Of a stretch of 64,000 nt of DNA, positions 26,224 to 50,225 are shown one piece after another. The notes under the pieces were generated by a model. That model had not been told where the DNA came from and did no database searches. It saw only the letters and a list, made by a program, of their open reading frames with translations. Every line of letters begins with the position of its first letter. Position 1 is the stretch's first letter. Source of the stretch: a phage; sequence record OR896157.1; one strand, written 5' to 3'. Position numbers and translations under genes: made by a program.

Positions 26224-26253
26224 ATAGTAACACACTTCCATGTGCGTGTAAAC
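26224..26253 (-). promoter_or_regulatory. early-promoter-like motif TTTACA-N17-TACTAT (copy 1 of 7)
   Basis: Minus-strand ccGTTTACA, 17-nt spacer, TGtTACTAT extended -10; upstream of the 96-aa ORF. Confidence 0.5.
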
Positions 26254-26255
26254 GG

Positions 26256-28391
26256 TTAAAGAACGAACTTCTCTGGAGTGTCTTCAACATCAATCATTGA
26301 AGCCAGCAGAGCAAGAATCTTGTTACTTTCCGACGTCTTTGTGGACTTCACAAATCCTTCAAAATCAAATGGACCTGATTCAGGCTGAGGTTCGTCACTG
26401 TATTCTACTACTTCACCAGTTTCCATCAGAACATCACCGTCATAAACAACAGCTTCGTCTAATTGGTCAGCAGTCATTACTTCGCCTTGGATGAATTTCT
26501 GATTGTCATGCACGAGACCATCACTATAAGAAGCATCTACAATGTTGTTGACTTTCAGCATGGTACCACGAGGCAGAATAACTTCCATTTCACCTGACAT
26601 ATTACTTAAGTCGCCAGGATAAACCACGTTAACTTTCTCGCCGCCAGTAATAGCCCAACCAATCATGACTCTTGTGCTTTCAGCTTGCTGAACATCTTTA
26701 GCTGCATGAACCTCATCAGTAAGACCTAATTCAGCATAAGTCATAGAAGCTAACTTGACAGTTTCTGCACTGTTATCTGGCTGATTCAATACTGCACGAG
26801 TATTATCAGAAGCCATTGCAACCGCTTGGTTACCTTTCCAACCGCCAAAGATAATTGGAGATAAAGATGTTGAAACATAGTTTCTGAAATAGAATACTCT
26901 GTTCTTAACCATAGCTTCAAAAATTGGTTTACGAACTGACTGTGAACGCCATAAGGTAAGTCCTTCTGGAATTCTGTCGCCGCGTTTAAATGCATCGTCC
27001 AAATTTTTGATAGCAGTAGTAACTTCTTTATAAGACAGTGTATCGTAATTGTCAGCTCTATAACGACCTAAAAGCATATTGTTGATGTCTGAATAACCGG
27101 AACCAACATACTCTTTAATGCCACGTTTTTCTGCATTTGTATATTGAAGAGGCGTACGAGTACGAGTAATATCTTCAATAGTAGCAGAAACGTTTTTAGC
27201 ATAACCTTGAAGAGCTGCTTTAATCATTTTGGTACGTTCAATGTTCCAAAGATTGTTAGCCATTTGCTCTTTATCTTTTGGCTCAAGGTATTGTGGAACT
27301 TTAGTCATGATATGTTCCATTGCTTCATGTTTACGTTCTTCTAAAGAGTCCAAAAGAGTTTGAGTATATGCCTGCATACTCTTAACAGAAGTTAATGGAG
27401 CATTGCCAATTCTTGATTCAAGTTCTTTTACGAATCTTTGTTCAAATTTCTCAGATTGGCTCAATTTAATCGTAGTCAACGATTTTAAATGGAAAATAGC
27501 ACCAGTAGCTGCTAATTGAGCAGAACGAGCTTTAGCCGCTTTAGATTCTACTGCATCCTTCAATTGCTGAGCTTCTGGAATAGGATTTGCCGTTGCGGGT
27601 TTACTGAATTCGGCAGCAGTAGCTTCGTATTTTTCAAATTCTTCTGGGTCATGAATAATGTCAGAAGTTAAAGATTGACTTGCTGCTACTTGACGACGAG
27701 ATACCTTAGCACGAGCAATAACAGATTGGTCGGTACGTTTGTCGTTCTCTTGAGCAATAGTAGCTGCTAACGCTTCTGATTTAGAAACCTGTTTACCTGA
27801 CTTATTGTTGATGTAAACATCGCCAACATCAGTATCAACCTTGGTGAACTCTTCTGTTGATATCTCTGGGATGCCAGGGACGGTTGAGAGGTCAACATTC
27901 TTACGATGAATAAGAACATACACGTACTTCTTATCGTAATCATAGAGTTCTTTCAGGATAACAAAACGACCGCCCAAACGACTCATCACCAAACGGTTGA
28001 TAATCATCTGAACTGCTCGAGCTTGTCCACCCATTTTGCTTTTAGCAATACGGAACATAACTGCATCCATTTTGTATTTCTTCACAGTTTGAGATACTAA
28101 GTCAAACATGGTAGAAATAACACCCAATGGATTACCACCAAGATTTTTCAGCTTAACCAAAGTACCTTTTTCAGATACACCAAGCACAATAGCATGCATC
28201 ATTTTATCGCCAGGTTTAACGTTCTTGTTAACGTCGCCACCGCCGGTGTAAGAACACATACGAAGAGCTACTGAACCTTCTGGAGCAGCAATTGCAAAAA
28301 TCTGTGGAATTTTAGTTTTCGGATAAAGATTAGTGACCGGAAGCATTTCTGAATCCGCGTCAAAAATCTCATTTAATTGAAATTCGGTCAT
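26256..28391 (-). CDS. alt: Alt, ADP-ribosyltransferase
   Basis: 711 aa from ATG at 28391; N-terminal half closely matches T4 Alt as recalled (...LPVTNLYPK.KIPQIF..., LKELYDYDKKYVYVLIHRKNV). Confidence 0.92.
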   Translation of the reverse strand: MTEFQLNEIFDADSEMLPVTNLYPKTKIPQIFAIAAPEGSVALRMCSYTGGGDVNKNVKPGDKMMHAIVLGVSEKGTLVKLKNLGGNPLGVISTMFDLVSQTVKKYKMDAVMFRIAKSKMGGQARAVQMIINRLVMSRLGGRFVILKELYDYDKKYVYVLIHRKNVDLSTVPGIPEISTEEFTKVDTDVGDVYINNKSGKQVSKSEALAATIAQENDKRTDQSVIARAKVSRRQVAASQSLTSDIIHDPEEFEKYEATAAEFSKPATANPIPEAQQLKDAVESKAAKARSAQLAATGAIFHLKSLTTIKLSQSEKFEQRFVKELESRIGNAPLTSVKSMQAYTQTLLDSLEERKHEAMEHIMTKVPQYLEPKDKEQMANNLWNIERTKMIKAALQGYAKNVSATIEDITRTRTPLQYTNAEKRGIKEYVGSGYSDINNMLLGRYRADNYDTLSYKEVTTAIKNLDDAFKRGDRIPEGLTLWRSQSVRKPIFEAMVKNRVFYFRNYVSTSLSPIIFGGWKGNQAVAMASDNTRAVLNQPDNSAETVKLASMTYAELGLTDEVHAAKDVQQAESTRVMIGWAITGGEKVNVVYPGDLSNMSGEMEVILPRGTMLKVNNIVDASYSDGLVHDNQKFIQGEVMTADQLDEAVVYDGDVLMETGEVVEYSDEPQPESGPFDFEGFVKSTKTSESNKILALLASMIDVEDTPEKFVL

Positions 28392-28431
28392 TATGAGTCC
28401 TCTATTGTTTCTTATATTTATAGACAATTAA

Positions 28432-28445
28432 AGCCCCGAAGGGCT
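28432..28445 (-). terminator. C(UUCG)G hairpin between gene 30 operon and alt
   Basis: Plus AGCCC-CGAA-GGGCT, UUCG loop in minus-strand RNA. Confidence 0.4.
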
Positions 28446-28663
28446 TAGACTGCAATAATATTCCTGAAGATTTCAACTTTTCCACCGCCACGAGTAGCAA
28501 TGACCTCGTGTTTGTTGATTCCTGAAACTCGACCATCTGTAAATGATTCTACTTCACCTTGTGGGCGGAATGGTAATTCGACCAAGCTCTGTGTTACATT
28601 AGCGGCTCGTCCTGAGCCTTCACCTGGGTGAGCAATTGTGATAATCTCTAAATAGAATTTCAT
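28445..28663 (-). CDS. hypothetical protein
   Basis: 72 aa; start overlaps the ligase stop. Confidence 0.5.
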   Translation of the reverse strand: MKFYLEIITIAHPGEGSGRAANVTQSLVELPFRPQGEVESFTDGRVSGINKHEVIATRGGGKVEIFRNIIAV

Positions 28664-30105
28664 AGACCAGTAACCTCATGGAAATCGCCCCAGATATCAG
28701 CAAACGTATTTGCTACATCTTTGTCACGACGCATTTTAATTGCAATAGGCAAGAACAGTTTGACATAATCTGTCCGGCCTTCAGCAGCTAACCAACCATT
28801 ACATTCGGATTCAAGAATACCACCGATGTATTCATTTTTATTCAGCCAAATACGAGTACGGTCTAACTCGTGCCAATCTGAAATTTTGTCTTTAAGACCT
28901 GAACCAGCTTTAACTTTAATCAGACCACATTCTGATTCAAGATAAAAACCACCGGCTTTGCCTGGTTGTTTACTATGCTCATATATATCAACAATGCGAA
29001 GGTCAATCGTAATAACTTCTTTGAACTTATAAAGGTTTTTAGAACGAGTGTTTTCCCAGAAAGCACCAATGTTCTTCAGGATAATACCTTCAAGGCCTTC
29101 ATCAACATATTTGCGATAAATGACCTTGGCTTCATCAAGATTATGAACGATGTGGTTCTCAATCAGAATCATCTGAGAGTAACCTTTAACCATCAGTTCT
29201 AATGCACGGAAGCGAACATCATACGCAAATCCAGATTCTTTACCTTCGGAATAAACAACATCCAACGGAACGTAATCCCATACCTGGAATTTCATACCAG
29301 CAGCTTCTTTAGCTGAGATAGTTCCTTTCAGAGATTTATTGGCCAACCCGTTTGACATTGTACGGGATTCTTCTTTGAATTCCTTAGCTTCACTTAACTC
29401 AGGTAAATCGCCAAAGATATCGTCCAACGGACCAGCAGGTTCAACGATAGCATGATAAACGAGTTCACCGTCAATCATTACACCGCCAGGATGGCGTTCA
29501 CGAGCTTCTTTAGTCATTTCGATGAGCTGTTGTTTCAGCAAATCTAAACCAAGATACTCGTTACCAGCACGAGACAGAATTTTTACATCGTCTAATTCAT
29601 CACCACGGATTTCAGCAAATGCTCGTGCGCCATCAGCCTTCAGCTGCGCAAATGCAGGGAACTTAATGTTCTTTTTAATGCCTTTTTCATCGTAAGATGA
29701 AGCAAGCATTTGAGGTTGTTCAGGAATTAGATTTTTCCATACTTTATTCGCAATACTACGGGATGCGCCACAGCGCAAATCACGAAGCAGAACTTTCTTA
29801 ATAACTTCTGCATCCGCATCAGATGTTTGAGATAAAGCAATTTCAAGTTTTTCCTTTGCGGCATTACCGGTCACAACTCGCTTAGCTAATTTTTCTTCTA
29901 GCAAATAAAGCATGTCTTCAAGAGTAAGATGAATATCACCTTTAGGTCTCGTATCCCACTTCTTGATGTAATACTGGAGCTTACCATCATAAGTCATTCT
30001 GAATACTCGCTTCAAAAGCTCATTATCTTTATGACGACGAATGATAGCTTCTTTTTCTTTTGTAGAGCCAATTGAAGCAATTTCATTGATAATATCTAAA
30101 ATCAT
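28660..30105 (-). CDS. 30: ATP-dependent DNA ligase gp30
   Basis: 481 aa from ATG at 30105; near-identical to T4 DNA ligase over long stretches as recalled (...NIKFPAFAQLKADGAR..., ...DYVKLFLPIAI...). Confidence 0.96.
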   Translation of the reverse strand: MILDIINEIASIGSTKEKEAIIRRHKDNELLKRVFRMTYDGKLQYYIKKWDTRPKGDIHLTLEDMLYLLEEKLAKRVVTGNAAKEKLEIALSQTSDADAEVIKKVLLRDLRCGASRSIANKVWKNLIPEQPQMLASSYDEKGIKKNIKFPAFAQLKADGARAFAEIRGDELDDVKILSRAGNEYLGLDLLKQQLIEMTKEARERHPGGVMIDGELVYHAIVEPAGPLDDIFGDLPELSEAKEFKEESRTMSNGLANKSLKGTISAKEAAGMKFQVWDYVPLDVVYSEGKESGFAYDVRFRALELMVKGYSQMILIENHIVHNLDEAKVIYRKYVDEGLEGIILKNIGAFWENTRSKNLYKFKEVITIDLRIVDIYEHSKQPGKAGGFYLESECGLIKVKAGSGLKDKISDWHELDRTRIWLNKNEYIGGILESECNGWLAAEGRTDYVKLFLPIAIKMRRDKDVANTFADIWGDFHEVTGL

Positions 30106-30163
30106 ATTCACCTCGTTTATTGTCCCGAGCGGGTATGACAATTATATCATACCCTTTGTAAAG

Positions 30164-30394
30164 CTATTGACCGCGATACTCACGAATGAGTTCAGCCAAA
30201 GTTCGGTGGTAAAGTACTCCACCATTTTTACGAGTAATGTAGATTGCGCCATTGAACATTGCATCAATCATTTCACGTTGCTTTTGATTATCAGCATGAA
30301 TGTTGCGCGCCTTGAAGAACTCTTCTTTGTTTGCGAAACTTTCAATACGCTTGGTTGCGTCTGTTTGAGGGAACCATTCAATTACGTTAATCAT
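30164..30394 (-). CDS. hypothetical protein
   Basis: 76 aa; start overlaps stop of the HAD-like gene (ATGA). Confidence 0.55.
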   Translation of the reverse strand: MINVIEWFPQTDATKRIESFANKEEFFKARNIHADNQKQREMIDAMFNGAIYITRKNGGVLYHRTLAELIREYRGQ

Positions 30395-31254
30395 ACTTTA
30401 CCTATAGTAGTTTTAGCTGTAGGCTGACGATTCAGATATTCGATACCTGTCCCGATTCCAAAGTTTGGACGATGCACAGGAAGATTTCCTGGATGCTCAT
30501 ACCACGGCTTATAATCAGAAGGACCTGGATTTACCCATTTCTTTGGAAATTCTGGAAACTTATCAAATGGCCAATTCGGAGTAGTCTTTTCAACCTTTTT
30601 GAATAAGTCGCTCAGCTTATCACCAAGGCTTTCCTGGAATTCGCGCTGATTCATCAGACGCTGAACATGTTCCCAGTTATGCACCTTTTCTCCATATTTA
30701 GAGGAGGTGTCTCGCTGACCACGAGGCATAAACATGCAATTGACTTCGCCGCCAAAGACTTCATAAGCTGAATCTACGTGATGAGGAAGGTCATCAATAT
30801 AAGCAACAACTCTGTCGCCATATTTTTCTTTTATTTTCTCGAAGAGCTTGGTTTTTGGCTCAGAGTGGTCGCAGATGAAAGTTTCAAGAAAAGCACCTGG
30901 GAACAAAGCGTTCAAGTTGAATTGACGATTCAGTTTAGCATCAACAGAAGTACCAAGCGCAGTAACCGCAACGAAGTCATACTTATCTTTCAGAGCATTG
31001 ACAACTTTCAGAGCATCGTCGTATGCTGCCAGATAGCGAATGAAATCTGAGCAATTATATTTGACCATCAGCTGTTGAGCAAATTCTTCGTCTACACCAA
31101 ACAGATCTTTTGGCGCAACGAATTGGTCATCAATAATCATTTCAAGAATGTGGTGAACAGGCAGATTGTACTTCTGAGCGAAGTAAGGCAAGCCTGATTG
31201 CCACTTTACTAATACACCGTCTACATCAGTAGAGATAATTGGTTTATTTGACAT
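30391..31254 (-). CDS. HAD-superfamily phosphatase-like protein with about 90-aa C-terminal extension
   Basis: 287 aa; HAD motif I DVDGVL near N-terminus, Thr in VAVTALGT, DD in AYIDDLPHH. Confidence 0.65.
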   Translation of the reverse strand: MSNKPIISTDVDGVLVKWQSGLPYFAQKYNLPVHHILEMIIDDQFVAPKDLFGVDEEFAQQLMVKYNCSDFIRYLAAYDDALKVVNALKDKYDFVAVTALGTSVDAKLNRQFNLNALFPGAFLETFICDHSEPKTKLFEKIKEKYGDRVVAYIDDLPHHVDSAYEVFGGEVNCMFMPRGQRDTSSKYGEKVHNWEHVQRLMNQREFQESLGDKLSDLFKKVEKTTPNWPFDKFPEFPKKWVNPGPSDYKPWYEHPGNLPVHRPNFGIGTGIEYLNRQPTAKTTIGKV

Positions 31255-31420
31255 TTTTAGCCTTCATTTTAGCAATCATGTAAGCCGCGATACAAGATTT
31301 ACCCGGCAGTGATGGTTGTCCAACTCCACTTAATAGAGTAGTTAACTCTCCTACTTTAATACCGCCTTGATTTAAGCGTTTTAAAACATCAAGACCTTTC
31401 ATATCATATTTGACTTGCAT
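31244..31420 (-). CDS. unannotated small ORF (58 aa)
   Basis: ATG-initiated frame MQVKYDMKGLDVLKRL... below the 60-aa track cutoff; ends 11 nt inside the HAD-like gene. Confidence 0.35.
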   Translation of the reverse strand: MQVKYDMKGLDVLKRLNQGGIKVGELTTLLSGVGQPSLPGKSCIAAYMIAKMKAKNVK

Positions 31421-32405: not shown

Positions 32406-32423
32406 AACTATTTCCTCAAGTAG

Positions 32424-32439: not shown

Positions 32440-32443
32440 AAAT

Positions 32444-32806
32444 TTAGATTACGAATTCGTTTGAAACGATATCCCAAATTGCTTCACGCTGTTCTTCAGT
32501 TGTTTTCTGACCAAGAACGTGACGCAGATAAAGTTTAACCAGAAGTTTGCGATTGTCTCCGTTCCAAGAAGGATGAGTTCCTAAATCGCGTTTACGGTGG
32601 TCATCATGAAAACCAACAGAAATGACTGAACCTTTGAGTTTAACATCTAAAGTTGGGCCATTTTCAAAACTGATGAAGACGTAGTTATCTTCCCAGTACA
32701 TATCGATTTGAGCAACTGTGCCATTTTTATGTTCCCAGAGTAAAGTTGTTGAAACGTCCCATGCATTATCTTGAACGTATTTCTTTTTGAAGTTAGTGTA
32801 ATCCAT
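32444..32806 (-). CDS. hypothetical protein
   Basis: 120 aa from ATG with GGAG Shine-Dalgarno; early-promoter-like motif upstream. Confidence 0.6.
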   Translation of the reverse strand: MDYTNFKKKYVQDNAWDVSTTLLWEHKNGTVAQIDMYWEDNYVFISFENGPTLDVKLKGSVISVGFHDDHRKRDLGTHPSWNGDNRKLLVKLYLRHVLGQKTTEEQREAIWDIVSNEFVI

Positions 32807-32844
32807 TTTGTTCTCCGTTGTATCTGTTTGTTTATTGAGTTTAT

Positions 32845-32874
32845 ATACTAACACATACAACGGAGGATGTAAAC
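32845..32874 (-). promoter_or_regulatory. early-promoter-like motif TTTACA-N17-TAGTAT (copy 2)
   Basis: Same 45-nt motif family as at 26224. Confidence 0.5.
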
Positions 32875-32877
32875 GGT

Positions 32878-33405
32878 TTAGTTCACTTCTGTGAAAATTG
32901 TTTGAGGAACGTACTCGGTTTTGGCAGTTGCAATCATCTTCATAATGATAGCTTTACCTTCAATGTTTTTACGCAAGAACGACTTGCACGCATCATGAGC
33001 TTCTTCAGATGTCATAAGAATAGCTATGGAACGCTCGTCCCCTACTTGGTCCAGATTCAACCAAACGTTTTCTTTCTTAGTCTGGCCTAAAGCTACATAC
33101 ATCACTTCAACGGTCTTTTCTTCAACCTCAACCTCAACCAGGAAATTTCTGACTTCAGTGCCGGTGAACCAAGGACATGAATCACCATTCATACCGTCAA
33201 TTTCAGCACCTTTTGGGCTTATCCAGCTTTCATTTTCAAATCGGATAAGACCTACAGAACCACTTGCAATAGCTTCGCCTTTTGCAATGTAAAAAGACTT
33301 ATCACCGATATACTCAGCAATAAGCTGATTCACTCTCTGATTACAGCCTTCGGTGGATTTTAAAAAGCCTTCTTTTTCTAAGCGGTACAGAACATCACTT
33401 TTCAT
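32878..33405 (-). CDS. hypothetical protein
   Basis: 175 aa; contains CPWFTGTEV segment shared at DNA level with the neighbouring ORF. Confidence 0.6.
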   Translation of the reverse strand: MKSDVLYRLEKEGFLKSTEGCNQRVNQLIAEYIGDKSFYIAKGEAIASGSVGLIRFENESWISPKGAEIDGMNGDSCPWFTGTEVRNFLVEVEVEEKTVEVMYVALGQTKKENVWLNLDQVGDERSIAILMTSEEAHDACKSFLRKNIEGKAIIMKMIATAKTEYVPQTIFTEVN

Positions 33406-33431: not shown

Positions 33432-33804
33432 AGAACATTTTACGTTCGGTCCAGTTATCAAGATTAACTGTACCAGTTTTCTTCATTTTTTCAATCAAGT
33501 TATCTGCACGAGTGCGTCCATTTTCATACCACACTACATCTTCAGAATAACCATCTTCGTCTTCATAAGTTTCAGAACGAATATGACCATGAATGCTTGT
33601 TTTCAAAACGTATTCAGTGCCGGTGAACCAATTAGTCAGAATAATGTACCAGCAGAAATCAGTAGATGGACCTTCAGGAGTCATGCAGTGAACTACATCT
33701 CCTTGCCACGAAGACAGATGCCACATTGGCTCTTCTACTTCGATTGCTTTGTATCCATCGTGGTCTTTCGTTTTGATAGTAGCATTCAGATTAATTGTGT
33801 TCAT
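33430..33804 (-). CDS. hypothetical protein
   Basis: 124 aa from ATG with GGAG Shine-Dalgarno; contains NWFTGTEYV. Confidence 0.6.
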   Translation of the reverse strand: MNTINLNATIKTKDHDGYKAIEVEEPMWHLSSWQGDVVHCMTPEGPSTDFCWYIILTNWFTGTEYVLKTSIHGHIRSETYEDEDGYSEDVVWYENGRTRADNLIEKMKKTGTVNLDNWTERKMF

Positions 33805-33840
33805 TTTATTCTCCGTTACCATATTGGTTATTGAGATTCT

Positions 33841-33869
33841 ATCATAACACAACTTTTGGCAGATGTAAA
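33841..33869 (-). promoter_or_regulatory. early-promoter-like motif TTTACA-N17-TATGAT (copy 3)
   Basis: Same motif family. Confidence 0.5.
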
Positions 33870-33872
33870 CGG

Positions 33873-34076
33873 TTAGAGTTTTTCGCAACTATGGTATTCA
33901 GCATCTGCCCAAATGCCGAATGCTGGCAATGATTCTAGCATTGAGTTTCCAACTTCAATTGGGTCTTCCCACGGCCAAAGTGTAGCAATCTTTTCATAGA
34001 AAAAGACTGAATCCATATGTGAATATTCTGCAGGGTATTCTGATATAACTTTGAAAATAAATTTACGTTTAAACAT
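33873..34076 (-). CDS. hypothetical protein
   Basis: 67 aa from ATG with AGAGG Shine-Dalgarno (track start is TTG). Confidence 0.5.
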   Translation of the reverse strand: MFKRKFIFKVISEYPAEYSHMDSVFFYEKIATLWPWEDPIEVGNSMLESLPAFGIWADAEYHSCEKL

Positions 34077-34098: not shown

Positions 34099-34118
34099 GG
34101 GACTCCCGAAGGAGTCCC
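34099..34118 (-). terminator. intrinsic terminator with C(UUCG)G loop
   Basis: Plus GGGACTCC-CGAA-GGAGTCCC; minus-strand RNA has the hairpin followed by UUUUUU. Confidence 0.7.
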
Positions 34119-35743: not shown

Positions 35744-36275
35744 TATACCAATTGAGTTTATTCAAGTTCGTCTTAGGAACATGATGAATCTCAATACCAG
35801 CATCGCGGAGGATGTTATCCCAACCGTCGGCATTTTTATCGTATGTTTCACAATATACGAGTTTCTTAATTCCAGATTGAGCAATAGCTTTGGCGCAGTC
35901 TGGGCATGGTGAAAGTGTAACGTACATCGTAGCGCCTTCAATTGAAGAACCATTACGTGCTGCGAACAGAATAGCATTCAATTCAGCATGTATTTCGTTA
36001 ATTTTCGACCACTTAGAATGTTCAGCTCGGAATTTAGTGTCTAATCCATATTTTGGAATTGGTCCATCTTGACGAAGACCACTTCCAGGTTTCTTAACTA
36101 ACCACCCTTTATCTTCGGCATGGTCACAGCAGTTAACTCCACCGGCAGGAGAACCATTATAGCCGGTAGAAATGATACGACCATTTTTCTCAATAACTGC
36201 ACCGACTTTCCAGGAGCAGCATTTCGATTCTTGGGAAATCAGATAAGCGATTTGTAAGACGGTGCTAGCTTTCAT
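35709..36275 (-). CDS. cd: dCMP deaminase
   Basis: 188 aa; zinc-binding deaminase motifs HAELNA and PCPDC; T4 position between pseT and 31. Confidence 0.93.
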   Translation of the reverse strand: MKASTVLQIAYLISQESKCCSWKVGAVIEKNGRIISTGYNGSPAGGVNCCDHAEDKGWLVKKPGSGLRQDGPIPKYGLDTKFRAEHSKWSKINEIHAELNAILFAARNGSSIEGATMYVTLSPCPDCAKAIAQSGIKKLVYCETYDKNADGWDNILRDAGIEIHHVPKTNLNKLNWYNVENYCGVEND

Positions 36276-36622
36276 TATTGAATCACCAAATAGTTTGAAC
36301 GGTCAGTTTTAATCAGTGTAATTTCAGTATGAAGAGGAATAATCTCTTGTACCGTACCAGTGATTATAAACACCCCATCTTTAAAGCGTTTCTTTCCGTC
36401 GAAGAAAACATCACCGTAAAAACGTTCACCTACGATAGGAGAAGTCTGGTCTTTAGAAGTGATAAGGATTCCATCATACCCGTCGCAAGAATTCACCAGA
36501 CGGTCACACGCTAATACAGAACGAACGAATCCAACACCATCTTCAGTGAATTGAGATTTATCACCACAAGCATTGTAATGTTCTTTTCGGACACCATCGA
36601 AGATGTCAGTTAAATTCATCAA
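36275..36622 (-). CDS. hypothetical protein (cd-upstream small ORF)
   Basis: 115 aa; start/stop coupled with neighbours. Confidence 0.55.
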   Translation of the reverse strand: MMNLTDIFDGVRKEHYNACGDKSQFTEDGVGFVRSVLACDRLVNSCDGYDGILITSKDQTSPIVGERFYGDVFFDGKKRFKDGVFIITGTVQEIIPLHTEITLIKTDRSNYLVIQ

Positions 36623-39565: not shown

Positions 39566-40059
39566 AATTTGATGATTGCCTGTACAATATCGTCCTGAGA
39601 AAGACCATTGATAAGAATATGGTGTTCAGCAGGAGAGTTTTGAATTTTGAAGCAGGGATCCACCATCTCTGCCATTTCAGAAGCAGACAGACGAGGATTT
39701 GAAACACCCAGACGATGCTTTCCATAGATTGGGTCTACAATGATGTAGCACTTACAACCATTTACATGAACGTTTGGTTGGGAAATGTTAATCATCACTT
39801 CTGCACCGTACTTGGTCAGATGATTATCTAAGAAGCTGCGCATTTCTTCTACTGCTTCAGGCATCTTCTCAGCGCGTTCTTCATTTACGCGGTTGCTATA
39901 TTCTTTACGAGCCTTTTGACGCTTTTGGTCGCGAGAGTAAGCTACACGTAAATCTGTGATGTAACCCAGAGGACGAGAATTTTTGAAAATACGAATCCCG
40001 TCATGATGAGTGCCACCGTAAATTTCTATTAGTTCTTCAGCAGTGATTAAGTTCAGCAT
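39553..40059 (-). CDS. alc: Alc (host transcription inhibitor), by position
   Basis: 168 aa (T4 Alc 167 aa); sits between spanins and rnlA as in T4; sequence identity not recalled. Confidence 0.6.
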   Translation of the reverse strand: MLNLITAEELIEIYGGTHHDGIRIFKNSRPLGYITDLRVAYSRDQKRQKARKEYSNRVNEERAEKMPEAVEEMRSFLDNHLTKYGAEVMINISQPNVHVNGCKCYIIVDPIYGKHRLGVSNPRLSASEMAEMVDPCFKIQNSPAEHHILINGLSQDDIVQAIIKLCSK

Positions 40060-40090
40060 TTCGTTTTCTCCATTTGGTTAGTGTAGAGAC

Positions 40091-40119
40091 ATAGTAACAC
40101 AACCAAATGGAGATGTAAA
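40091..40119 (-). promoter_or_regulatory. early-promoter-like motif TTTACA-N17-TACTAT (copy 4)
   Basis: Same motif family; upstream of alc. Confidence 0.5.
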
Positions 40120-40122
40120 CGG

Positions 40123-41253
40123 TTAGATGTACTTAGCCGGAATGAACGGCTTAGAGTTCTTCAAGAACGCAGCGTTCAGCTTCGTGATGAGCTGGTCGTC
40201 ATCAAGGTCTCCTGCATACATTTTCATGATGATACCGAAAATCTGAGGTAGACCCGCTGCGGCAGTAGCCGCTTGAGCATTTGCTGCATAAGTCTTACGA
40301 TCTTTACCACGATGAGTAGAGTAGAAGTCTTGGCACAGTTTAAGAGCTGAACGAAGATAGTCTAAGTACTGGGTTTCAAAGGCATTAATCTTATCGATAG
40401 CTACTTTATCATTATCAAACATGCCACGAAGGTCATCAGCAGCATTGTTCACGATGCATTCAAACAGACGTTGGTTGTTGATAATAGAATCCTTTGTGTG
40501 GTGTAGAGCACAATACCATTCTGTTTTCAGTTTGAAACGAAGACCATCTTCCATTACGCAAACATAACCTTCAATTTGTTCTTCAGCACGAATCTTGGAA
40601 ACGAAATCTCCATTAGGAACTTCAAATGCTTCTACCAGATACTTACGAAGAACTGGATGTGCCAAAAGGTCTTCGTAATCAATGTACTCACCTGTGTCAT
40701 TTTCGCGAACGTTCAGAAGAATAAGCATCTTTTCATGGTAGTTCAGAACAATTCGGTTTTGTGGAGAACAGTATTCAAAGTTAGCAGTGAAACCATCTTT
40801 TGCTAAATCAATCAGAGCTTCAGCCAAATCCAGATGATCGATACTTGCCAGCATTGCAGAAGCTTCAACAGCCTGCTCAGATTTGATAGAAGTCTTAGAC
40901 TTAAAGCGAATACGATTTTCACCGTCCAAATAAGTAGAAACCAAGGAGCCATCTTCTTTGGCTAACATATACTTAATCTTAGAAAGGTCCAGATTCATAG
41001 TGAATGGAGTTTCATTAAGATTGAAGAACTTTTCCATTGGACGAGATGCGATACGCACCGGGGCATCGTCTGAATCAAGTTCAAACATAATGCCACGACA
41101 CTCTAATGCAGACGGCAGGAGCCAGTCAGAGTAAGATGCGTAATGGTAAGAAAACGTGCGATATTTGTACCCCATTGGAGATACATCATCACAGTAGAAG
41201 AAACGAGTTTCATCGTTACATAGAGTCATGAGCTCATTGAATAATTTTTTCAC
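40123..41253 (-). CDS. rnlA: RNA ligase 1
   Basis: 376 aa (T4 Rnl1 374 aa); ...YASYSDWLLP.ALECRGIMFE... and lysine motif region match T4 as recalled. Confidence 0.94.
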   Translation of the reverse strand: MKKLFNELMTLCNDETRFFYCDDVSPMGYKYRTFSYHYASYSDWLLPSALECRGIMFELDSDDAPVRIASRPMEKFFNLNETPFTMNLDLSKIKYMLAKEDGSLVSTYLDGENRIRFKSKTSIKSEQAVEASAMLASIDHLDLAEALIDLAKDGFTANFEYCSPQNRIVLNYHEKMLILLNVRENDTGEYIDYEDLLAHPVLRKYLVEAFEVPNGDFVSKIRAEEQIEGYVCVMEDGLRFKLKTEWYCALHHTKDSIINNQRLFECIVNNAADDLRGMFDNDKVAIDKINAFETQYLDYLRSALKLCQDFYSTHRGKDRKTYAANAQAATAAAGLPQIFGIIMKMYAGDLDDDQLITKLNAAFLKNSKPFIPAKYI

Positions 41254-42865: not shown

Positions 42866-43083
42866 TTAACTTCCTCAAATTCAAATTCAACATTCACCTG
42901 AGCAATAGCTTCAGCTGCGCAACGATAACCTTCAAGAAACATTGCAAGACTGTGATCGTCGTCGTTTACCATTAAAGGTGGAACTTCGTTTAATGCAGAA
43001 CGAATGATGAATGTTTTCATTTGTTCGCCATTATTATAAACGGCATAAATGTCGTACCATTTTGCTTCTGTTCTGTGGCTCAT
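42862..43083 (-). CDS. hypothetical protein
   Basis: 73 aa; coupled between nrdA-side ORF and nrdB. Confidence 0.5.
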   Translation of the reverse strand: MSHRTEAKWYDIYAVYNNGEQMKTFIIRSALNEVPPLMVNDDDHSLAMFLEGYRCAAEAIAQVNVEFEFEEVK

Positions 43084-43256
43084 AAATTGTATGTCCTATT
43101 AAGTAATTCTGACGTAACTTTAGTTGATTCTGAATAAATTCTAAACTCTTCGTCTAGCTTTTTAAGACGTTTTCTTAATTTTTCAATAAATTCAGGCGTC
43201 AACTCTATTGTTTTAACTATTTCCAAAAGTTCTTGAATACTCATAGTTTGCTTCAT
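43080..43256 (-). CDS. hypothetical protein
   Basis: 58 aa from ATG with AGGAGG Shine-Dalgarno. Confidence 0.5.
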   Translation of the reverse strand: MKQTMSIQELLEIVKTIELTPEFIEKLRKRLKKLDEEFRIYSESTKVTSELLNRTYNL

Positions 43257-43302
43257 AAATCCTCCTAAGGACCATCCGTGGTCCAATTATAAACTGAAAG
43301 AA

Positions 43303-45856: not shown

Positions 45857-46086
45857 TTAACTTCCACAATAAACCATGTATCATGAATTAATTGATTAGA
45901 TTCAAGTCCGAATTCTTCAAAACCGTGCGCTTTTTCGTATGCATGGACAACGTTACGAACATAGAGACGCGCTCCACGAACTTGAATAATTGAACCGACC
46001 TTTGGAATTTCAGAATCACGGATGTTATAAACTTCTGCGATAGGGTCTTCTTCATTATTTTGAATTACAATTCTAAGATGTGGCAT
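45853..46086 (-). CDS. hypothetical protein
   Basis: 77 aa. Confidence 0.5.
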   Translation of the reverse strand: MPHLRIVIQNNEEDPIAEVYNIRDSEIPKVGSIIQVRGARLYVRNVVHAYEKAHGFEEFGLESNQLIHDTWFIVEVK

Positions 46087-46274
46087 TATGCTTTACTCAC
46101 AATAACAACGCGTTCAGTAGATTCACCAACAATTTCAATGTGATGAGCCAGAACTATATGAAAATAGCCATTAATCATAATAGAAGAGTTTAATTTGAAG
46201 TCAGCATCGCACAGTTGCTCATCAGTTTGAGCATAAACGATACTTCCCAAAGCATTTGTAAATTTAGTAATCAT
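46086..46274 (-). CDS. hypothetical protein
   Basis: 62 aa. Confidence 0.45.
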   Translation of the reverse strand: MITKFTNALGSIVYAQTDEQLCDADFKLNSSIMINGYFHIVLAHHIEIVGESTERVVIVSKA

Positions 46275-47131
46275 ACAGCCATTTTTCCTTTGATTGTTGG
46301 GTGACTTTCATAGTTAACTAACTTGAAGTCTTCGATAACAGCAAATCGGTTTATCCACTTAAGCTGAGATGAAGTTTGCCAGCGCTCAAACTCAATTGGA
46401 AAATCAATTTCAAGCTCACAGAGTTCTTTTGGCTCTCGACGAAGAATTTCTTCGCACTGCTCAATATGATTTGAGTAGATGTGAGTGTTGCCCCCAGTAA
46501 ATATCAAATGACCAGGTTTTAAGCCAGTCATTTTAGCTACGATATGAATCAAAGCAGCATATGATGCAATATTGAATGGTAGACCAAGGAATACATCTAC
46601 CGACCTCTGGTACCACTGGAGGTCCAGAAACCCATTGCGTACGTTAAACTGATATATCATATGGCATGGTGGAAGCGCCATCTTAGGGATGTCTAGAGGG
46701 TTCCAGGCAGTCACAATTTGACGACGGTCATTAGGCAGTTCTTTAATTCGGTCAATAACCAAAGTCAATTGGTCAACACCCATAAAGTCTCGCCATTGCT
46801 TACCGTAGACAGGACCAAGCTCACCATCAACGTATCCCATTGAACGAGCTTGATTTTCGTAATTGTCGTCCCAGACAGTTTTACCATTTGTCGGAGAACC
46901 ATGCTGACGAAGACGTAAATCGTTTACATTTGTTGAACCAGATAGGAACCACAAAAGTTCTGCAATACATGCTTTCCAGGCAAGCTTCTTAGTAGTTACT
47001 GCTGGAAAACCTTGTTGCAAATCAAAACGAAGCTGAGTGCCAAACACAGCACAAGTGCCAGTTCCTGTGCGGTCATCAGTCACGTAACCTTCATCAAAGA
47101 TATGCTGAATTAGCTGTTGATATTGTTTCAT
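46271..47131 (-). CDS. td: thymidylate synthase (uninterrupted)
   Basis: 286 aa, same length as the spliced T4 Td product; continuous ORF. Confidence 0.95.
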   Translation of the reverse strand: MKQYQQLIQHIFDEGYVTDDRTGTGTCAVFGTQLRFDLQQGFPAVTTKKLAWKACIAELLWFLSGSTNVNDLRLRQHGSPTNGKTVWDDNYENQARSMGYVDGELGPVYGKQWRDFMGVDQLTLVIDRIKELPNDRRQIVTAWNPLDIPKMALPPCHMIYQFNVRNGFLDLQWYQRSVDVFLGLPFNIASYAALIHIVAKMTGLKPGHLIFTGGNTHIYSNHIEQCEEILRREPKELCELEIDFPIEFERWQTSSQLKWINRFAVIEDFKLVNYESHPTIKGKMAV

Positions 47132-47478
47132 TATTTTCCTGGGCGAAAGAAGATTTCACGGCCTTGTTTATCAAACCGACCAAAAACAGTCATCGTATTA
47201 CCAGTGATGACTACATTACCTTTAGCAATATGATGAATTGTTTGACGAGTGTTCATCATAATTTTAACACCTAAGCCACGAGCAATTCTGATGCCTTCAT
47301 CAGCTGCCCAAGTGTCATTGATTTCAACATCAATGCGATACAATCCATGTGGAATTGTTTTGTATAACTCAGGCTTTCGCTTATATTGCTCAATAGTAGG
47401 AGCATTACCCTCGATTACTAAAGCCCAGTTTTTCTGGGTCTCTTCTTGTAACAGAGTCAAATGATTATTGATTTTCAT
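47131..47478 (-). CDS. hypothetical protein, paralog A of tandem pair
   Basis: 115 aa from internal ATG; shares L.LL...TQK.W and GNV.ITGN...FG.F....G...FF.P with the adjacent ORF. Confidence 0.55.
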   Translation of the reverse strand: MKINNHLTLLQEETQKNWALVIEGNAPTIEQYKRKPELYKTIPHGLYRIDVEINDTWAADEGIRIARGLGVKIMMNTRQTIHHIAKGNVVITGNTMTVFGRFDKQGREIFFRPGK

Positions 47479-47785
47479 ATTGTTCTTCCAACGGATTGAA
47501 GAATACTTGACTTCCGCTTTTAAAGAAGTCTCCAATCATTGTAACATAGCCATTTGAAAAGCTAACATTACCATTCATTGAAGCAAGTAGCACTGATTTC
47601 ATTGAACGACAAAGTTCAATTGGGTTATTTCCATTGCTATCATAGATAGTGTACTCTGCATTACGATACTCTCTGATATCTTCAATCGCAAAGGATAACT
47701 CATACACACCGTGAACTTTATTCCAGTTCTTCCATTTCTTTTGAGTTTTATAGGTCTCTAACAGACGAAGATTATACCCTTTCAT
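47465..47785 (-). CDS. hypothetical protein, paralog B of tandem pair
   Basis: 106 aa; see paralog A. Confidence 0.55.
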   Translation of the reverse strand: MKGYNLRLLETYKTQKKWKNWNKVHGVYELSFAIEDIREYRNAEYTIYDSNGNNPIELCRSMKSVLLASMNGNVSFSNGYVTMIGDFFKSGSQVFFNPLEEQYENQ

Positions 47786-48380
47786 AGACAGTCTCCGTTA
47801 ATGAAGTTAGTTCATCACAACGAACCCAAGACGTTTCTACCATTTGAAACGCATTTTCCCATGCCGGATATGAAATAAAGCTCATGTCCAGAGTGACATC
47901 AGAGTTAACCCGATGTTTCTTCTGTATTGACGTTTGGATAATACGGTCTGCGTATGGCTGAGCCGTCTCTAGAATCCTCTTGCCACCAATAACAGAATAG
48001 TTATCATTCGGAAGAAGACGAATACGAATGCCACCGTGATTTGTGTAGTAGTTATTGGTTTTGTCAAGGAAAGCTTTAAATTCTTCTGGACTCATGTAGC
48101 CGTCGGGAAATAAACCATCTTTTGCTTGAGCAAATGGACGATTCATATCTTGTACAACAATGCACTTGCGGCCTTTAAGGGCAGTAGGCATGCTCATCCA
48201 AGTTTTTGCACCCATGATAACGACAGTGTCTTTGGTACGTTTTGCAAAGTTCTGCATATCACGCTTGATATGACCCCACGGCAATCCGTCTTTAAGACCA
48301 AAAGCATATTCGTTTTGACCATTAACTGTCTTGGTTCCACAATAAGCATATACAAGTTGTAGCATTATGATTTCCTGCAT
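47772..48380 (-). CDS. frd: dihydrofolate reductase
   Basis: 202 aa; DHFR-like LPW motif region and nucleotide-binding Gly-rich segment; position upstream of td. Confidence 0.9.
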   Translation of the reverse strand: MQEIIMLQLVYAYCGTKTVNGQNEYAFGLKDGLPWGHIKRDMQNFAKRTKDTVVIMGAKTWMSMPTALKGRKCIVVQDMNRPFAQAKDGLFPDGYMSPEEFKAFLDKTNNYYTNHGGIRIRLLPNDNYSVIGGKRILETAQPYADRIIQTSIQKKHRVNSDVTLDMSFISYPAWENAFQMVETSWVRCDELTSLTETVYERV

Positions 48381-48577
48381 TTAATGAGAGCATTGTAAAG
48401 ACGGCGCGTAAATTCAATATTAGCTTCACGACCAATGCGAGATAAAAAGTTTTTAGTCATATCATCATATGACTGTTTTAGCCCAGTCGTAATATTATCA
48501 ACGGCTTCATTATAACCGTCTTTACGAGCTTTGGCTTTAGCTTCTTCAAACTCTTCAAGAGTCATTGTGATTTGCAT
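48365..48577 (-). CDS. hypothetical protein
   Basis: 70 aa from ATG that forms TAATG coupling with the upstream mini-ORF (track ORF 48365..48607). Confidence 0.5.
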   Translation of the reverse strand: MQITMTLEEFEEAKAKARKDGYNEAVDNITTGLKQSYDDMTKNFLSRIGREANIEFTRRLYNALIKCRKS

Positions 48578-48675
48578 TAACCTTGCCTCATTCCGCATTT
48601 GATACAACGACCACCAGCAAACATCAGATTAGTCCCGCAATACTTGCATTCCCAATCAGAAAGAATTCGAATCAT
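48577..48675 (-). CDS. unannotated 32-aa zinc-ribbon-like mini-ORF
   Basis: MIRILSDWECKYCGTNLMFAGGRCIKCGMRQG, CxxC-N11-CxxC; coupled to downstream ORF. Confidence 0.35.
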   Translation of the reverse strand: MIRILSDWECKYCGTNLMFAGGRCIKCGMRQG

Positions 48676-48979
48676 AACCAGCAGCCCTTACAAGACGACG
48701 CATCATTTCCATTCCATCTTCAACAGCACCAGCGAGTTCTTCAAATGCAGTTTTAGTGAAGATGAAAGCCGCACCTACTTTCTGACGCTGAAGATAACCG
48801 TTGATGATTTGGTCATCCAGCGGGAAGGTGCCATATCCAGTTTCAATTATGCCTGACACTCGGTTACCACGGGAGTGTGGGTCATACTCCATAGTAATCC
48901 AAGATACACCTGGAAAATTCTCAAACTGACAACGTACTTTAACTTTAGGATATGCAATTGAGTGAATATCGTTAGACAT
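48656..48979 (-). CDS. hypothetical protein
   Basis: 107 aa. Confidence 0.55.
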   Translation of the reverse strand: MSNDIHSIAYPKVKVRCQFENFPGVSWITMEYDPHSRGNRVSGIIETGYGTFPLDDQIINGYLQRQKVGAAFIFTKTAFEELAGAVEDGMEMMRRLVRAAGYDSNSF

Positions 48980-49263
48980 TATTTTGGCTCCTTTTTAGCA
49001 ATTTTCCAGGCAGCTTTGAAAGCTTCGACTTCAGAAATTTCAATCCAAAAACCGCTACCAAAGCCATCGTTATAGCAGGGACAGCCATCGCAGTAATGGT
49101 CCCAAGTAAGTACCAGACCATCACCACGAACAGCACCAGTTTCCATTTCGCGAAGGCGGTCTTCAGCAGCTTCAATAGCTTCCGGGTCATTCCCTTCGAT
49201 GATAAAGTACCACTTGCCATTGTATTCACTTCCGAGTTTAATTGATTGACGTTGAAGTTTCAT
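48979..49263 (-). CDS. hypothetical Cys-rich protein
   Basis: 94 aa from ATG with AGGAG Shine-Dalgarno; HYCDGCPCY motif. Confidence 0.55.
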   Translation of the reverse strand: MKLQRQSIKLGSEYNGKWYFIIEGNDPEAIEAAEDRLREMETGAVRGDGLVLTWDHYCDGCPCYNDGFGSGFWIEISEVEAFKAAWKIAKKEPK

Positions 49264-49290
49264 TTTATTCTCCTTTGTTTTGATAGGGCT

Positions 49291-49319
49291 ATAGTAACAC
49301 ACCATAGCCCTGATGTAAA
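49291..49319 (-). promoter_or_regulatory. early-promoter-like motif TTTACA-N17-TACTAT (copy 5)
   Basis: Same motif family; the -10 lies within a short palindrome GGGCTATAG...CTATAGCCC. Confidence 0.5.
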
Positions 49320-49322
49320 CGG

Positions 49323-49571
49323 TTAGTCGTCTACTTTTAGCAACTTTTTGAAAGCATCAAATGATTTCATGTGCTTTGGTTCAAGATACACATGCTTAAC
49401 CATCTTGCCTTCAAGGGAGAAGACTTCAACTACCATGTCATAACACTCGTCTTCAACGAGATGCATGCATTTTGGAGTACAAGCTTTGTCAAACAACTGA
49501 ACCAAGTTGTTGCCAGCCCAGATGTTTTTGCTGCCGTCATAGCTATAATCTTCAGAAAGAACATAAAACAT
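49323..49571 (-). CDS. hypothetical protein
   Basis: 82 aa from ATG with GGAG Shine-Dalgarno (track start is TTG). Confidence 0.55.
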   Translation of the reverse strand: MFYVLSEDYSYDGSKNIWAGNNLVQLFDKACTPKCMHLVEDECYDMVVEVFSLEGKMVKHVYLEPKHMKSFDAFKKLLKVDD

Positions 49572-49583
49572 TTTAATCTCCAA

Positions 49584-49599
49584 AGGGCCCGAAGGCCCT
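49584..49599 (-). terminator. C(UUCG)G hairpin (intercistronic)
   Basis: Plus AGGGCC-CGAA-GGCCCT. Confidence 0.4.
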
Positions 49600-49603
49600 A
49601 TTA

Positions 49604-49876
49604 TTAAGCGGTGTAATCTTCCACCATTTCCATGATGTATTCATAATCTTCTTCGTCTTGGGCATAAAAATCTTTAACCCAAAGACCAATGTCTACTTGA
49701 TGACCAATTAATTTAATTTCTGGCCAGCCGCCGCCTTGACCACTTTCATTTACAACTTCAAATTTCAAACCACTAAATGGACTATTGAAACGAGAGCCGT
49801 CATCAAACTCTAAATCAACTACTTTACCGTTTTCTTTAACGAGATCGCATACAATGTCAATTACAAGTTGTTTCAT
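49604..49876 (-). CDS. hypothetical acidic protein
   Basis: 90 aa. Confidence 0.55.
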   Translation of the reverse strand: MKQLVIDIVCDLVKENGKVVDLEFDDGSRFNSPFSGLKFEVVNESGQGGGWPEIKLIGHQVDIGLWVKDFYAQDEEDYEYIMEMVEDYTA

Positions 49877-49908
49877 TTTGATTTACTCTCTGTTGTTTTG
49901 ATAGTGCT

Positions 49909-49937
49909 ATAATACCACATCCATGCGGTGATGTAAA
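49909..49937 (-). promoter_or_regulatory. early-promoter-like motif TTTACA-N17-TATTAT (copy 6)
   Basis: Same motif family. Confidence 0.5.
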
Positions 49938-49940
49938 CGG

Positions 49941-50165
49941 TTAGTTGCAAATTTCAGAAATAGTGTCAGCCAAGAATTCGCCAGTTTCGTCAGCGCCTAC
50001 GCAGTAAGATTCAGTTAAGAATTTTACAATTTTCTCACGAGGACCGAATACTTTGTATTCATATCCCCATTCTACATCGCCTGCTAATTCACAGTTTAGA
50101 CCGAATTTTTCAACTTCAGCTTCAAAATGTTCTTCATCTGCAACGCCGAGATAGATATGTGCCAT
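49941..50165 (-). CDS. hypothetical protein
   Basis: 74 aa. Confidence 0.55.
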   Translation of the reverse strand: MAHIYLGVADEEHFEAEVEKFGLNCELAGDVEWGYEYKVFGPREKIVKFLTESYCVGADETGEFLADTISEICN

Positions 50166-50196
50166 TTTGTTTTACTCCGTTTGGTTGGTGTAAGAG

Positions 50197-50225
50197 TATA
50201 GTAACACAGCTTAAAGCGGATGTAA
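50197..50225 (-). promoter_or_regulatory. early-promoter-like motif TTTACA-N17-TACTAT (copy 7)
   Basis: Same motif family. Confidence 0.5.

Follow-up and report, generated by a model that had tools for sequence, protein, structure and literature searches.

The window analysed here, a 64,000-nt stretch of phage DNA (sequence record OR896157.1), carries seven copies of the motif GTTTACA-N17-TANNAT, all on the minus strand. Because sequence class, position and conservation agree, we consider the seven copies very probably to be sigma-70-dependent early promoters of the phage T4 type, set in cassettes like the early-promoter stem-loop units known as PeSLs. In a subset of these cassettes the promoter spacer, which separates the -35 box from the -10 box, is complementary to the cassette's own leader. 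This spacer:leader complementarity is statistically solid and is conserved by co-variation from Karamvirus, the genus of the window, to T4. Our evidence consists of motif statistics, positions, conservation, hairpin thermodynamics and co-variation of the hairpin arms, and from it we infer promoter activity, start sites and an effect of masking on translation.

Cassettes of the T4 early-promoter type

The window belongs to the CC31/PG7-like T4-type phages of the genus Karamvirus (Straboviridae, Tevenvirinae), and the region is 94-97.5 % identical to Karamvirus phages of Enterobacter, Klebsiella and Cronobacter (CC31, PG7 and relatives). By the CC31 annotation the minus strand between 26 and 52 kb corresponds to the T4-like pre-replicative block, with the gene order alt, 30, 30.x, rIII, 31, cd, pseT, alc, rnlA, denA, nrdB, nrdA, td, frd, 32, 59 and 33.

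An exact search of the 64 kb returned seven matches to GTTTACA-N17-TANNAT, at 26224-26253, 32845-32874, 33841-33870, 40091-40120, 49291-49320, 49909-49938 and 50198-50227. Dinucleotide shuffles gave a mean of 0.08 matches, and seven were reached in none of 100 trials. We then scanned the 64 kb with a weight matrix trained on the 21 copies of the motif in CC31. The seven copies score 34-43 bits, and the runner-up, at 39756 on the plus strand, scores 17.8 bits and has no -10 box. All other minus-strand sites stay below 8 bits, and the scan found no weaker extra promoters of the same geometry. Since there are no intermediate-scoring copies, the promoters form a discrete class and not the tail of a distribution, and this result together with the shuffle expectation leads us to reject a chance origin of the seven copies. 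For comparison, a generic sigma-70 scan picks up all seven as TTTACA-17-TAnnAT with TG, and its totals (37 and 43 sites) equal the shuffled expectation. The generic consensus is therefore non-discriminating and the signal is carried by the GTTTACA and TGn signature. A pattern scan of IMG/VR with CCGTTTACAT-N16-TANNAT was set aside, as its 14 specified bases were too loose and the contigs among the matches listed were mostly unrelated.

The geometry of the seven copies is invariant. GTTTAC occupies -36 to -31 with T at -33, TTTACA is separated from the hexamer by 17 bp, and TG is found at -15/-14 in every copy. The -10 hexamer is TACTAT in four copies and TATTAT, TATGAT and TAGTAT in one each. 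The conservation extends on both sides of the promoter. In six of the seven copies the stop codon of the upstream open reading frame (ORF) lies 2-3 nt 5' of the G in GTTTACA (cTAAccGTTTACA), and the leader is conserved too, reading ..CT.ACAcTAACCAA.. or ..CTATCAAAACAA.. A GGAG Shine-Dalgarno sequence (SD) is present in six copies, copy 6 having GAGAG instead, and lies 6-10 nt from an ATG that opens a minus-strand ORF of 74-168 aa. Aligned from stop to start, the unit reads (c)TAA-CC-GTTTACAT-N12-TGTGT-TAnnAT-A...CT.ACA.TAACCAA or CTATCAAAACAA...GGAG-N6-10-ATG, which is a cassette of 65-75 bp made of upstream stop codon, promoter, A/C-rich leader, GGAG SD and ATG. The seven cassettes are:

26194..26259, minus strand: cassette 1, 5' of alt.-3; alt stop codon TAA 26256-26258, -35 GTTTACA 26247-26253, TGT+TACTAT 26224-26232, SD GGAG 26203-26206, ATG 26194-26196
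32804..32880, minus strand: cassette 2, 5' of 30.7; stop codon TAA, -35 32868-32874, TGT+TAGTAT 32845-32853, SD GGAG 32813-32816 in an exact RegB-type context (GGAGAACAAAA), ATG 32804-32806
33802..33876, minus strand: cassette 3, 5' of 30.8; stop codon TAA, -35 33864-33870, TGT+TATGAT 33841-33849, SD GGAG 33811-33814 in the context GGAGAATAAAA, ATG 33802-33804
40057..40126, minus strand: cassette 4, 5' of alc; rnlA stop codon TAA 40123-40125, -35 40114-40120, TGT+TACTAT 40091-40099, SD GGAG 40068-40071, ATG 40057-40059
49261..49326, minus strand: cassette 5, 5' of frd.1; stop codon TAA, -35 49314-49320, TGT+TACTAT 49291-49299, SD GGAG 49270-49273 in the context GGAGAATAAAA, ATG 49261-49263
49874..49944, minus strand: cassette 6, 5' of a 90-aa ORF (CC31p247 orthologue); stop codon TAA 49941-49943, -35 49932-49938, TGG+TATTAT 49909-49917, weak SD GAGAG, ATG 49874-49876
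50163..50233, minus strand: cassette 7, 5' of a 74-aa frd.3-like ORF; -35 50221-50227, TGT+TACTAT 50198-50206, SD GGAG 50175-50178, ATG 50163-50165

Cassette 7 is the sole copy that does not adjoin an ORF; some 85 nt separate it from the terminator that follows gene 32. The ORF behind it has a weak match to Phage_FRD3 (PF05798, E 1.5e-5, below the cut-off), which was the only Pfam result among the window-specific ORFs. All copies are co-oriented with the early genes and located 5' of them. The same holds in the complete CC31 genome, where the strict motif occurs 21 times, always on the early-gene strand, and precedes motA, asiA, modA, srd, denV, alc and others.

The published features of T4 early promoters are GTTTAC at -36 to -31, a GT-rich or TGn element 5' of -12, a conserved A at -11 and T at -7, and A-rich upstream DNA, and in every T4-like genome examined such promoters stand 5' of early genes as well as of novel ORFs (PMC1524935; PMC2988021). 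We found 32 strict matches in T4, all on the early-gene strand, and early-type promoters with related leaders stand at orthologous sites before alc, 30.7, 30.8, frd.1 and frd.3. The window copies thus share with their T4 counterparts the position of GTTTAC, the T at -33, the 17-bp spacer from TTTACA, TGn, TAnnAT, the early-gene strand, the A/C-rich leader families, the GGAG SD and the orthologous positions. They differ from them in four respects. Positions -42 to -37 read (c)TAACC here and AAAGTT or AAAACN in T4. The stop codon is fused to the promoter in 6/7 copies here and 17/25 in CC31, compared to 13/32 in T4. TATAAT is found in one of 25 CC31 promoters but in 8 of 32 in T4. Finally, the A-rich UP region is weak in the window copies: at -60 to -39 the AT content is 0.67 (genome 0.60) and the A content 0.34 (genome 0.30), while the T4 promoters have 0.72 (genome 0.65) and 0.42 (genome 0.33) respectively. 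A middle (MotA-box) promoter was considered and rejected, as every copy has GTTTACA, not TGCTT, at about -30.

Most of what the original prediction had claimed from the letters of the sequence stands. The exact search bears out seven minus-strand motifs, each just 5' of a minus-strand ORF with an SD, and a wider motif search, which had been proposed as a check, finds no further member of the class in the window and 21 in CC31. The likeness of the -35 box to the T4 early promoter agrees with the published consensus, and the early-promoter reading gains from the T4-class features, the co-orientation with early genes and the orthologous positions in CC31 and T4. The predicted 45-nt block is conserved as claimed; its length was underestimated, as the real block includes the upstream stop codon and the leader. 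The view that the -10 variants depart from T4 was mistaken, since T4's own hexamers cover the same range with TACTAT the commonest (TACTAT 14, TATAAT 8, TATTAT 4, TAGTAT 2 and TATGAT 1 among the 32 strict matches). Three features are absent from the original prediction: the stop codon on the 5' side, the conservation of the leader, and the complementarity of the spacer to the leader or SD.

The leaders fall into two families, ..CTTACAC(T/C)AAC.. and ..CTATCAA(A/C)(A/T)AC.., which are common to Karamvirus and T4 cassettes (window examples at 26207-26223, 40072-40090 and 49274-49290). This conservation exceeds what a mere spacer between +1 and the SD would need, and the leaders could be candidates for a translation-enhancer, S1 or RNase signal.

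We propose that the host RNA polymerase would recognise TTTACA (which together with the G before it forms the T4 signature GTTTAC), the 17-bp spacer, TGn and TAnnAT, and would start about 7 nt past the hexamer, giving an A/C-rich leader of 21-32 nt with a GGAG SD and the ATG. The polymerase would fire from the seven promoters at once on infection, and the short A/C-rich leader with GGAG may favour efficient early translation. Two points weigh against this reading. Promoter activity and start sites of the seven copies are deduced from sequence class and position, and the A-richness of the UP-element is weak because this region is coding in six of the seven. A literature search found no promoters described in Karamvirus and no transcript mapping for the genus.

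Complementarity between promoter spacer and leader

We folded the RNA of each cassette from stop codon to ATG and calculated z-scores against shuffles. Three cassettes form a significant hairpin (MFE, minimum free energy):

32813..32865, minus strand: hairpin of cassette 2; 5' arm CTCCGTTGTAT in the promoter spacer (within 32843-32865), 3' arm ATACAACGGAG (within 32813-32835) covering the SD with its upstream flank; MFE -23.4 kcal/mol, z -6.46, 0/200 shuffles as stable
40062..40121, minus strand: hairpin of cassette 4; 5' arm CGTTT...TCTCCATTTGGTTGTGT (40097-40121) running from the -35 through the spacer to the TGT before the hexamer, 3' arm ACAC.TAACCAAATGGAGAAAACG (40062-40084) comprising leader, SD and 6 nt beyond, -10 hexamer in the loop; core arms TCTCCATTTGGTTG (spacer after the -35) and CTAACCAAATGGAGA (SD and upstream flank); MFE -26.4 kcal/mol, z -7.92
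49277..49320, minus strand: hairpin of cassette 5; AGGGCTATGGTG pairs with TACTATAGCCCT, the 3' arm being the -10 hexamer and start region, SD outside the helix; MFE -18.3 kcal/mol, z -3.70

The structure of cassette 3 is moderate to marginal (MFE -13.0 kcal/mol, z -2.25); the T4 early-type promoter before 30.8 has TCCTTTGT/ACAAAGGA pairing. Cassette 7 has a weak pairing of spacer and SD (TCCG.CTTT/AAACGGA) that is not significant (z -1.13). No significant hairpin was found by folding in cassette 1 (z +0.49), which has a CC31 orthologue, or in cassette 6 (z +0.11). The short palindrome that the original prediction had placed around the -10 of copy 5 is real, and encloses or overlaps that box.

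The promoter spacer is thus complementary to its own leader in a subset of the cassettes, with the SD paired in copies 2 and 4 and weakly in copy 7, and with pairing across the -10 in copy 5. The predicted probability that the SD is unpaired is 0.00 in read-through RNA and 0.69 in the cassette's own transcript for copy 2, 0.00 and 0.59 for copy 4, and 0.03 and 0.47 for copy 7. Copies 1, 3, 5 and 6 show little difference between the two RNAs, and we do not count them as masked.

In a genome-wide test we paired each spacer with the leader of the same cassette (own) and with that of every other cassette (cross). In the whole CC31 genome the mean energy was -7.9 kcal/mol for own and -5.7 kcal/mol for cross pairs, and none of 20000 permutations was as good. 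Long perfect matches are found at denV (12 nt), 30.7 (11), alc (10), p276 (9) and nrdC.10 (8). T4 gave a similar result genome-wide (own -8.1, cross -5.6 kcal/mol; 0/20000 permutations as good), with strong cases that include regB, motB, ipI/57B and cd.3.

In the alc cassette the helix between spacer and SD is kept with both arms changed in Karamvirus, Merlin (Citrobacter), STML-198 (Salmonella), EcS1 (Escherichia), Cronus (Erwinia) and T4, with arm pairs CCATTTGG/CCAAATGG, CCGTTTGG/CCAAACGG, CCTCATTTTGTTG/CAACAAAATGAGG, TCTCCTCAG/CTGAGGAGA and GTCCCTCGTGTT/AACATGAGGAC. The spacer of each lineage has its best fit with the leader of that lineage. Among alc orthologues the own pairs average -15.3 kcal/mol against -8.6 for cross pairs, and 2 of 5040 permutations were as good. 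The frd.1 orthologues likewise keep the hairpin with different stems (own -16.4, cross -9.8 kcal/mol; 1/120 permutations as good). RNAalifold found no consensus structure on a MAFFT alignment of the alc promoters because the helices are out of register between genera, and the own-versus-cross duplex energies were used instead. No Rfam family matched anywhere in the window at gathering thresholds. We found no mention of the spacer:leader co-variation in T4 reviews or in the PeSL papers; an earlier description may exist in the older literature.

The inverted repeats might act in DNA and not in RNA, as a cruciform or single-strand hairpin that affects promoter melting, recombination or cutting by endonuclease VII. 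The repeat of copy 5 is symmetric around the -10 with a short loop and would be compatible with a cruciform, and GGGC...GCCC inverted repeats have been linked to T4 deletions (cited in PMC2839356). We consider this highly improbable. Among 34 strong hairpins, 26 fold more stably on the sense than on the antisense strand (mean difference -2.9 kcal/mol, p 0.002), and G-U pairs are more numerous on the sense strand (61 versus 44). This strand asymmetry modestly favours an RNA-level role. In addition, copies 2 and 4 have long loops, which are unfavourable for cruciforms, and the 3' arm follows the SD, a signal at the RNA level.

Within RNA, the stem-loops could attenuate or terminate transcription and so shield each cassette from transcription arriving from upstream, a role proposed by the authors of the PeSL papers, and not be translational masks. 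When one PeSL stem-loop of RB49 was inserted between lacZ and a strong promoter, expression fell about as much as with the T1 rrnB terminator (PMC2839356). The hairpin of copy 5 and its orthologues would suit this role, being compact and G+C-rich with loops of 3-10 nt and no involvement of the SD, and CC31 cassettes p064, p108 and p096 as well as window copy 7 come after canonical terminators. However, no U-tract follows the stem in copies 2, 4 and 5 (AGAACAAAAUG, AAAACGAAAUG, AUCAAAAC), and with no T-runs after the stems we reject a reading of these hairpins as intrinsic terminators. In copies 2 and 4 the core arms are 26-35 nt apart, which is also poor for intrinsic termination. The 3' arm at alc always tracks the SD despite sequence change, which termination does not require, and stopping before alc, 30.7 and the genes behind them would sever long stretches of genes for which there is no further cassette. 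Attenuation as the role of the stem-loops therefore appears unlikely.

Masking of the SD on read-through RNA is a further explanation for the hairpin subset, and we judge the case for and against it, as modelled here, to be evenly balanced. The spacer, free of sequence constraints from the polymerase, would encode the 5' arm, and the 3' arm would lie in the cassette's own leader: the SD in copies 2 (30.7), 4 (alc) and weakly 7, and the -10 with the start region in copy 5 (frd.1). Since the 5' arm is upstream of the cassette's own start site, the hairpin would be possible only in read-through RNA. The gene's own early transcript would be translated, and the gene would be masked on read-through RNA of the delayed-early, middle or late kind. 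Masking would thus confine translation to the early phase instead of delaying it. Read-through into alc is plausible because, from about 50.3 to 34.1 kb, the terminator-like hairpins that the scan lists for the minus strand are all weak (3-4 G-C pairs, poor T-runs).

In T4, masking of the ribosome-binding site on read-through RNA is an established mechanism at e, soc, 49 and I-TevI (PMC3014915). These hairpins share with the window cassettes a promoter located within the hairpin and a 3' arm formed by the translation-initiation region. There, transcripts from upstream are masked, and those that start at the embedded promoter are translated, as they do not include the 5' arm; the same is predicted here. 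The T4 hairpins, in contrast, hold a late promoter (gp55, TATAAATA) and delay translation, while the promoter in the window cassettes is of the early sigma-70 type and the 5' arm sits in the -35/-10 spacer. The device in the window is therefore like the T4 late-promoter hairpins in logic and not a member of the described set.

The early leaders may also be targets of RegB, whose strong sites have the consensus GG*AGRAYARAA (PMC3014915). Copies 2, 3 and 5 match GGAGRAYARAA exactly (GGAGAACAAAA, GGAGAATAAAA), copies 1, 4 and 7 share with it just the GGAG core, which is absent from copy 6. GGAG is present in 17 of 21 CC31 cassettes, and CC31 encodes regB. In T4, RegB inactivates early mRNAs within minutes (PMC3014915). 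As three leaders match the consensus and CC31 has regB, mRNAs from the cassettes' own promoters are probably inactivated within minutes as well. The predicted window sites resemble the T4 targets in being GGAG SDs in intergenic leaders of early genes.

RegB also enters an alternative view of the helix, to which we give little credence. The pairing of spacer and SD could couple translation to the ribosome terminating 2-3 nt before the -35 and at the same time shield GGAG from RegB. A transcript would be RegB-sensitive and short-lived if made from the cassette's own promoter, and RegB-resistant and translated by coupling if made by read-through. The stop codon adjoins GTTTACA in 6/7 copies, the 5' arm begins about 10-14 nt past it, within reach of the ribosome, and the RegB-type sequences described above fit the shielding part. 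The argument is nevertheless purely inferential, and the same stop-codon adjacency is seen in the helix-free cassettes (copies 1, 3 and 6). At -23 and -26 kcal/mol, copies 2 and 4 have helices that are strong for a terminating ribosome reaching just the first few pairs, and regB itself lies outside the window.

Several findings count against masking as a general explanation. Masking of the SD is predicted in only two to three of the seven window copies, and a loss of SD accessibility of at least 0.4 in 5/24 cassettes of CC31 and 4/24 of T4. The mean genome-wide drop in SD accessibility is 0.225, a small excess over the 0.18-0.19 of spacer-shuffled controls with their maximum of 0.217. The alc helix is present in six of seven lineages and absent from metagenomic contig L161. 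Hairpins of the copy 5 type are left unexplained because the SD is outside those helices. SD masking is thus a feature of a minority subset of the cassettes.

We tentatively put forward, as a possibility less likely than masking in the subset itself, that many early-promoter spacers across T4-like phages have been recruited as an anti-SD or anti-leader arm, forming a conserved 'promoter-of-origin' switch that would confine proteins such as Alc to the first minutes of infection. We found no account of such a switch in T4 reviews or in the PeSL papers. The mRNA would be open when made from its own early promoter and, when part of a read-through transcript, either masked or coupling-dependent and RegB-resistant. 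By analogy, such a switch would be the mirror image of the known late-promoter hairpins.

PeSL-like architecture and a possible role in recombination

PeSLs have been described in RB49/phi1, T4/PST and KVP40/nt-1 (Arbiol 2010, PMC2839356; Comeau 2014, PMC4122927). A PeSL is a repeated composite of upstream stop codon, AT-rich stretch, -35/-10, stem-loop, SD and start codon (PMC2839356), with the stem-loop most often between the boxes or over the -10 (PMC2839356; PMC4122927). These papers interpret the stem-loops as terminators or attenuators, and they regard the cassettes as sites of recombination by which small ORFs are shuffled (PMC2839356; PMC4122927). The composite of stop codon, -35/-10, SD and start codon is present in the window copies, which also resemble PeSLs in part, in the placement of the stem-loop between the boxes or over the -10 (copy 5 representing the latter subclass), the clusters before small variable ORFs (the slot from gene 32 to frd.1) and indel polymorphisms nearby. 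The window copies differ in that three to four of the seven have a significant stem-loop (copies 2, 4 and 5 with z -6.5, -7.9 and -3.7; copy 3 marginal with z -2.25; absent in 1, 6 and 7), in stems that are not poly-G/poly-C, in several helices that reach the SD, a placement and reading absent from the PeSL papers, and in having most indels relative to CC31 away from the cassettes. The papers (PMC2839356, PMC4122927) did not cover CC31-like phages, and for Karamvirus the architecture was previously undescribed.

The cassettes might then be mainly portable homology for recombination (modular shuffling or mini-circles, as in PeSLs), with a promoter role that is real but secondary. They amount to a near-identical repeat of about 70 bp present at least 21 times per genome, and mini-circles have been shown for RB49/phi1 (PMC2839356). 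The gene 32-frd.1 slot holds three tandem cassettes, and different small ORFs, each with its own cassette, occupy it in Merlin, Moon, STML-198 and T4. Two Karamvirus phages, KMB20 and myPSH1140, have an extra 238-bp ORF at about 49950, some 10 nt from the upstream edge (stop codon/-35) of cassette 6, and myPSH1140 lacks most of the 86-aa ORF (49323-49583) before cassette 5, the lost part being 49370-49554.

In T4 the spacer, -10 and leader of the alc cassette (GTCCCTCGTGTTGTGTTATAGTAGTCTTACT[G/A]ACATAACATGAGGA) are repeated near-exactly before alt.-3, 13 kb away (T4 coordinates 23023-23085 and 36266-36360). This duplication suggests a copied regulatory cassette and would fit a recombinational role.

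On the other side, the window and CC31 differ by eight indels or replacements, and no cassette is found at the junction of any of them. A shuffling role is therefore not evident in this comparison, and this detracts from a full PeSL identity of the cassettes. The KMB20 insertion is not flanked by two cassettes, and cassette positions are conserved from Karamvirus to T4 before the same core early genes, which fits regulation better than mobility. We thus find recombination doubtful as the main role, and the shuffling aspect of PeSLs is only partly borne out in Karamvirus. Early promoters in PeSL-type cassettes remain our preferred reading.

Transcription units and implications

Three strong terminator-like hairpins, after gene 54, after 30.9 and after gene 32, bound the early block:

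25879-25902, plus strand: strong intrinsic-terminator-like hairpin after gene 54, converging on alt.-3
34099..34118, minus strand: intrinsic-terminator-like hairpin GGGACTCCTTCGGGAGTCCC followed by T6, behind 30.9 and one small ORF 5' of cassette 3
50313..50336, minus strand: intrinsic-terminator-like hairpin and T-run after gene 32, bounding the transcription unit that starts at cassette 7

A conserved terminator 3' of gene 32 in T4-like phages was noted by Nolan et al. (PMC1524935). T4 also has a terminator before the 30.8 promoter, and the 30.9 terminator is near-identical in sequence to that of T4. The phage carries alt adjacent to copy 1.

Between the gene 32 terminator and copy 7 lies a palindrome, AGTAAC(G/T)TTTACGTTAC, in two copies 41 bp apart (50240-50256 and 50281-50297, minus strand). 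The pair is conserved in CC31 (143-144 kb), where a third GTAAC-N6-GTTAC is found at the t/asiA junction. These GTAAC...GTTAC palindromes look like operators of a dimeric DNA-binding protein.

Relative to CC31 the window has a 683-bp insertion between genes 32 and 59 (51292-51974), carrying a minus-strand ORF of 212 aa (51338-51976) without a Pfam match; in T4 this slot holds the homing endonuclease segG. A 394-bp insertion between nrdB and nrdA (42867-43260) carries two small ORFs (73 and 68 aa), again without a Pfam match, in a slot that holds mobE and nrdB.1 in T4. Replaced segments are found at 14130-15325 (hoc region) and 61096-63131 (distal tail-fibre genes 37/38) and are typical host-range and decoration variation.

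T4-type early promoters as such are ordinary for this virus family, and what is new is their write-up for Karamvirus. The early transcription units of this unstudied genus, whose Enterobacter and Klebsiella phages are used therapeutically, can be drawn from sequence alone, with about 26 kb organised by seven early starts and two terminators. The complementarity between spacer and leader is the more useful lead. Its co-variation is well supported and extends to T4, where alc and regB are examples of sites at which it can be tested directly. According to reviews, early shut-off is incompletely understood, and the complementarity could help to explain why the synthesis of some early proteins stops despite ongoing transcription from upstream.

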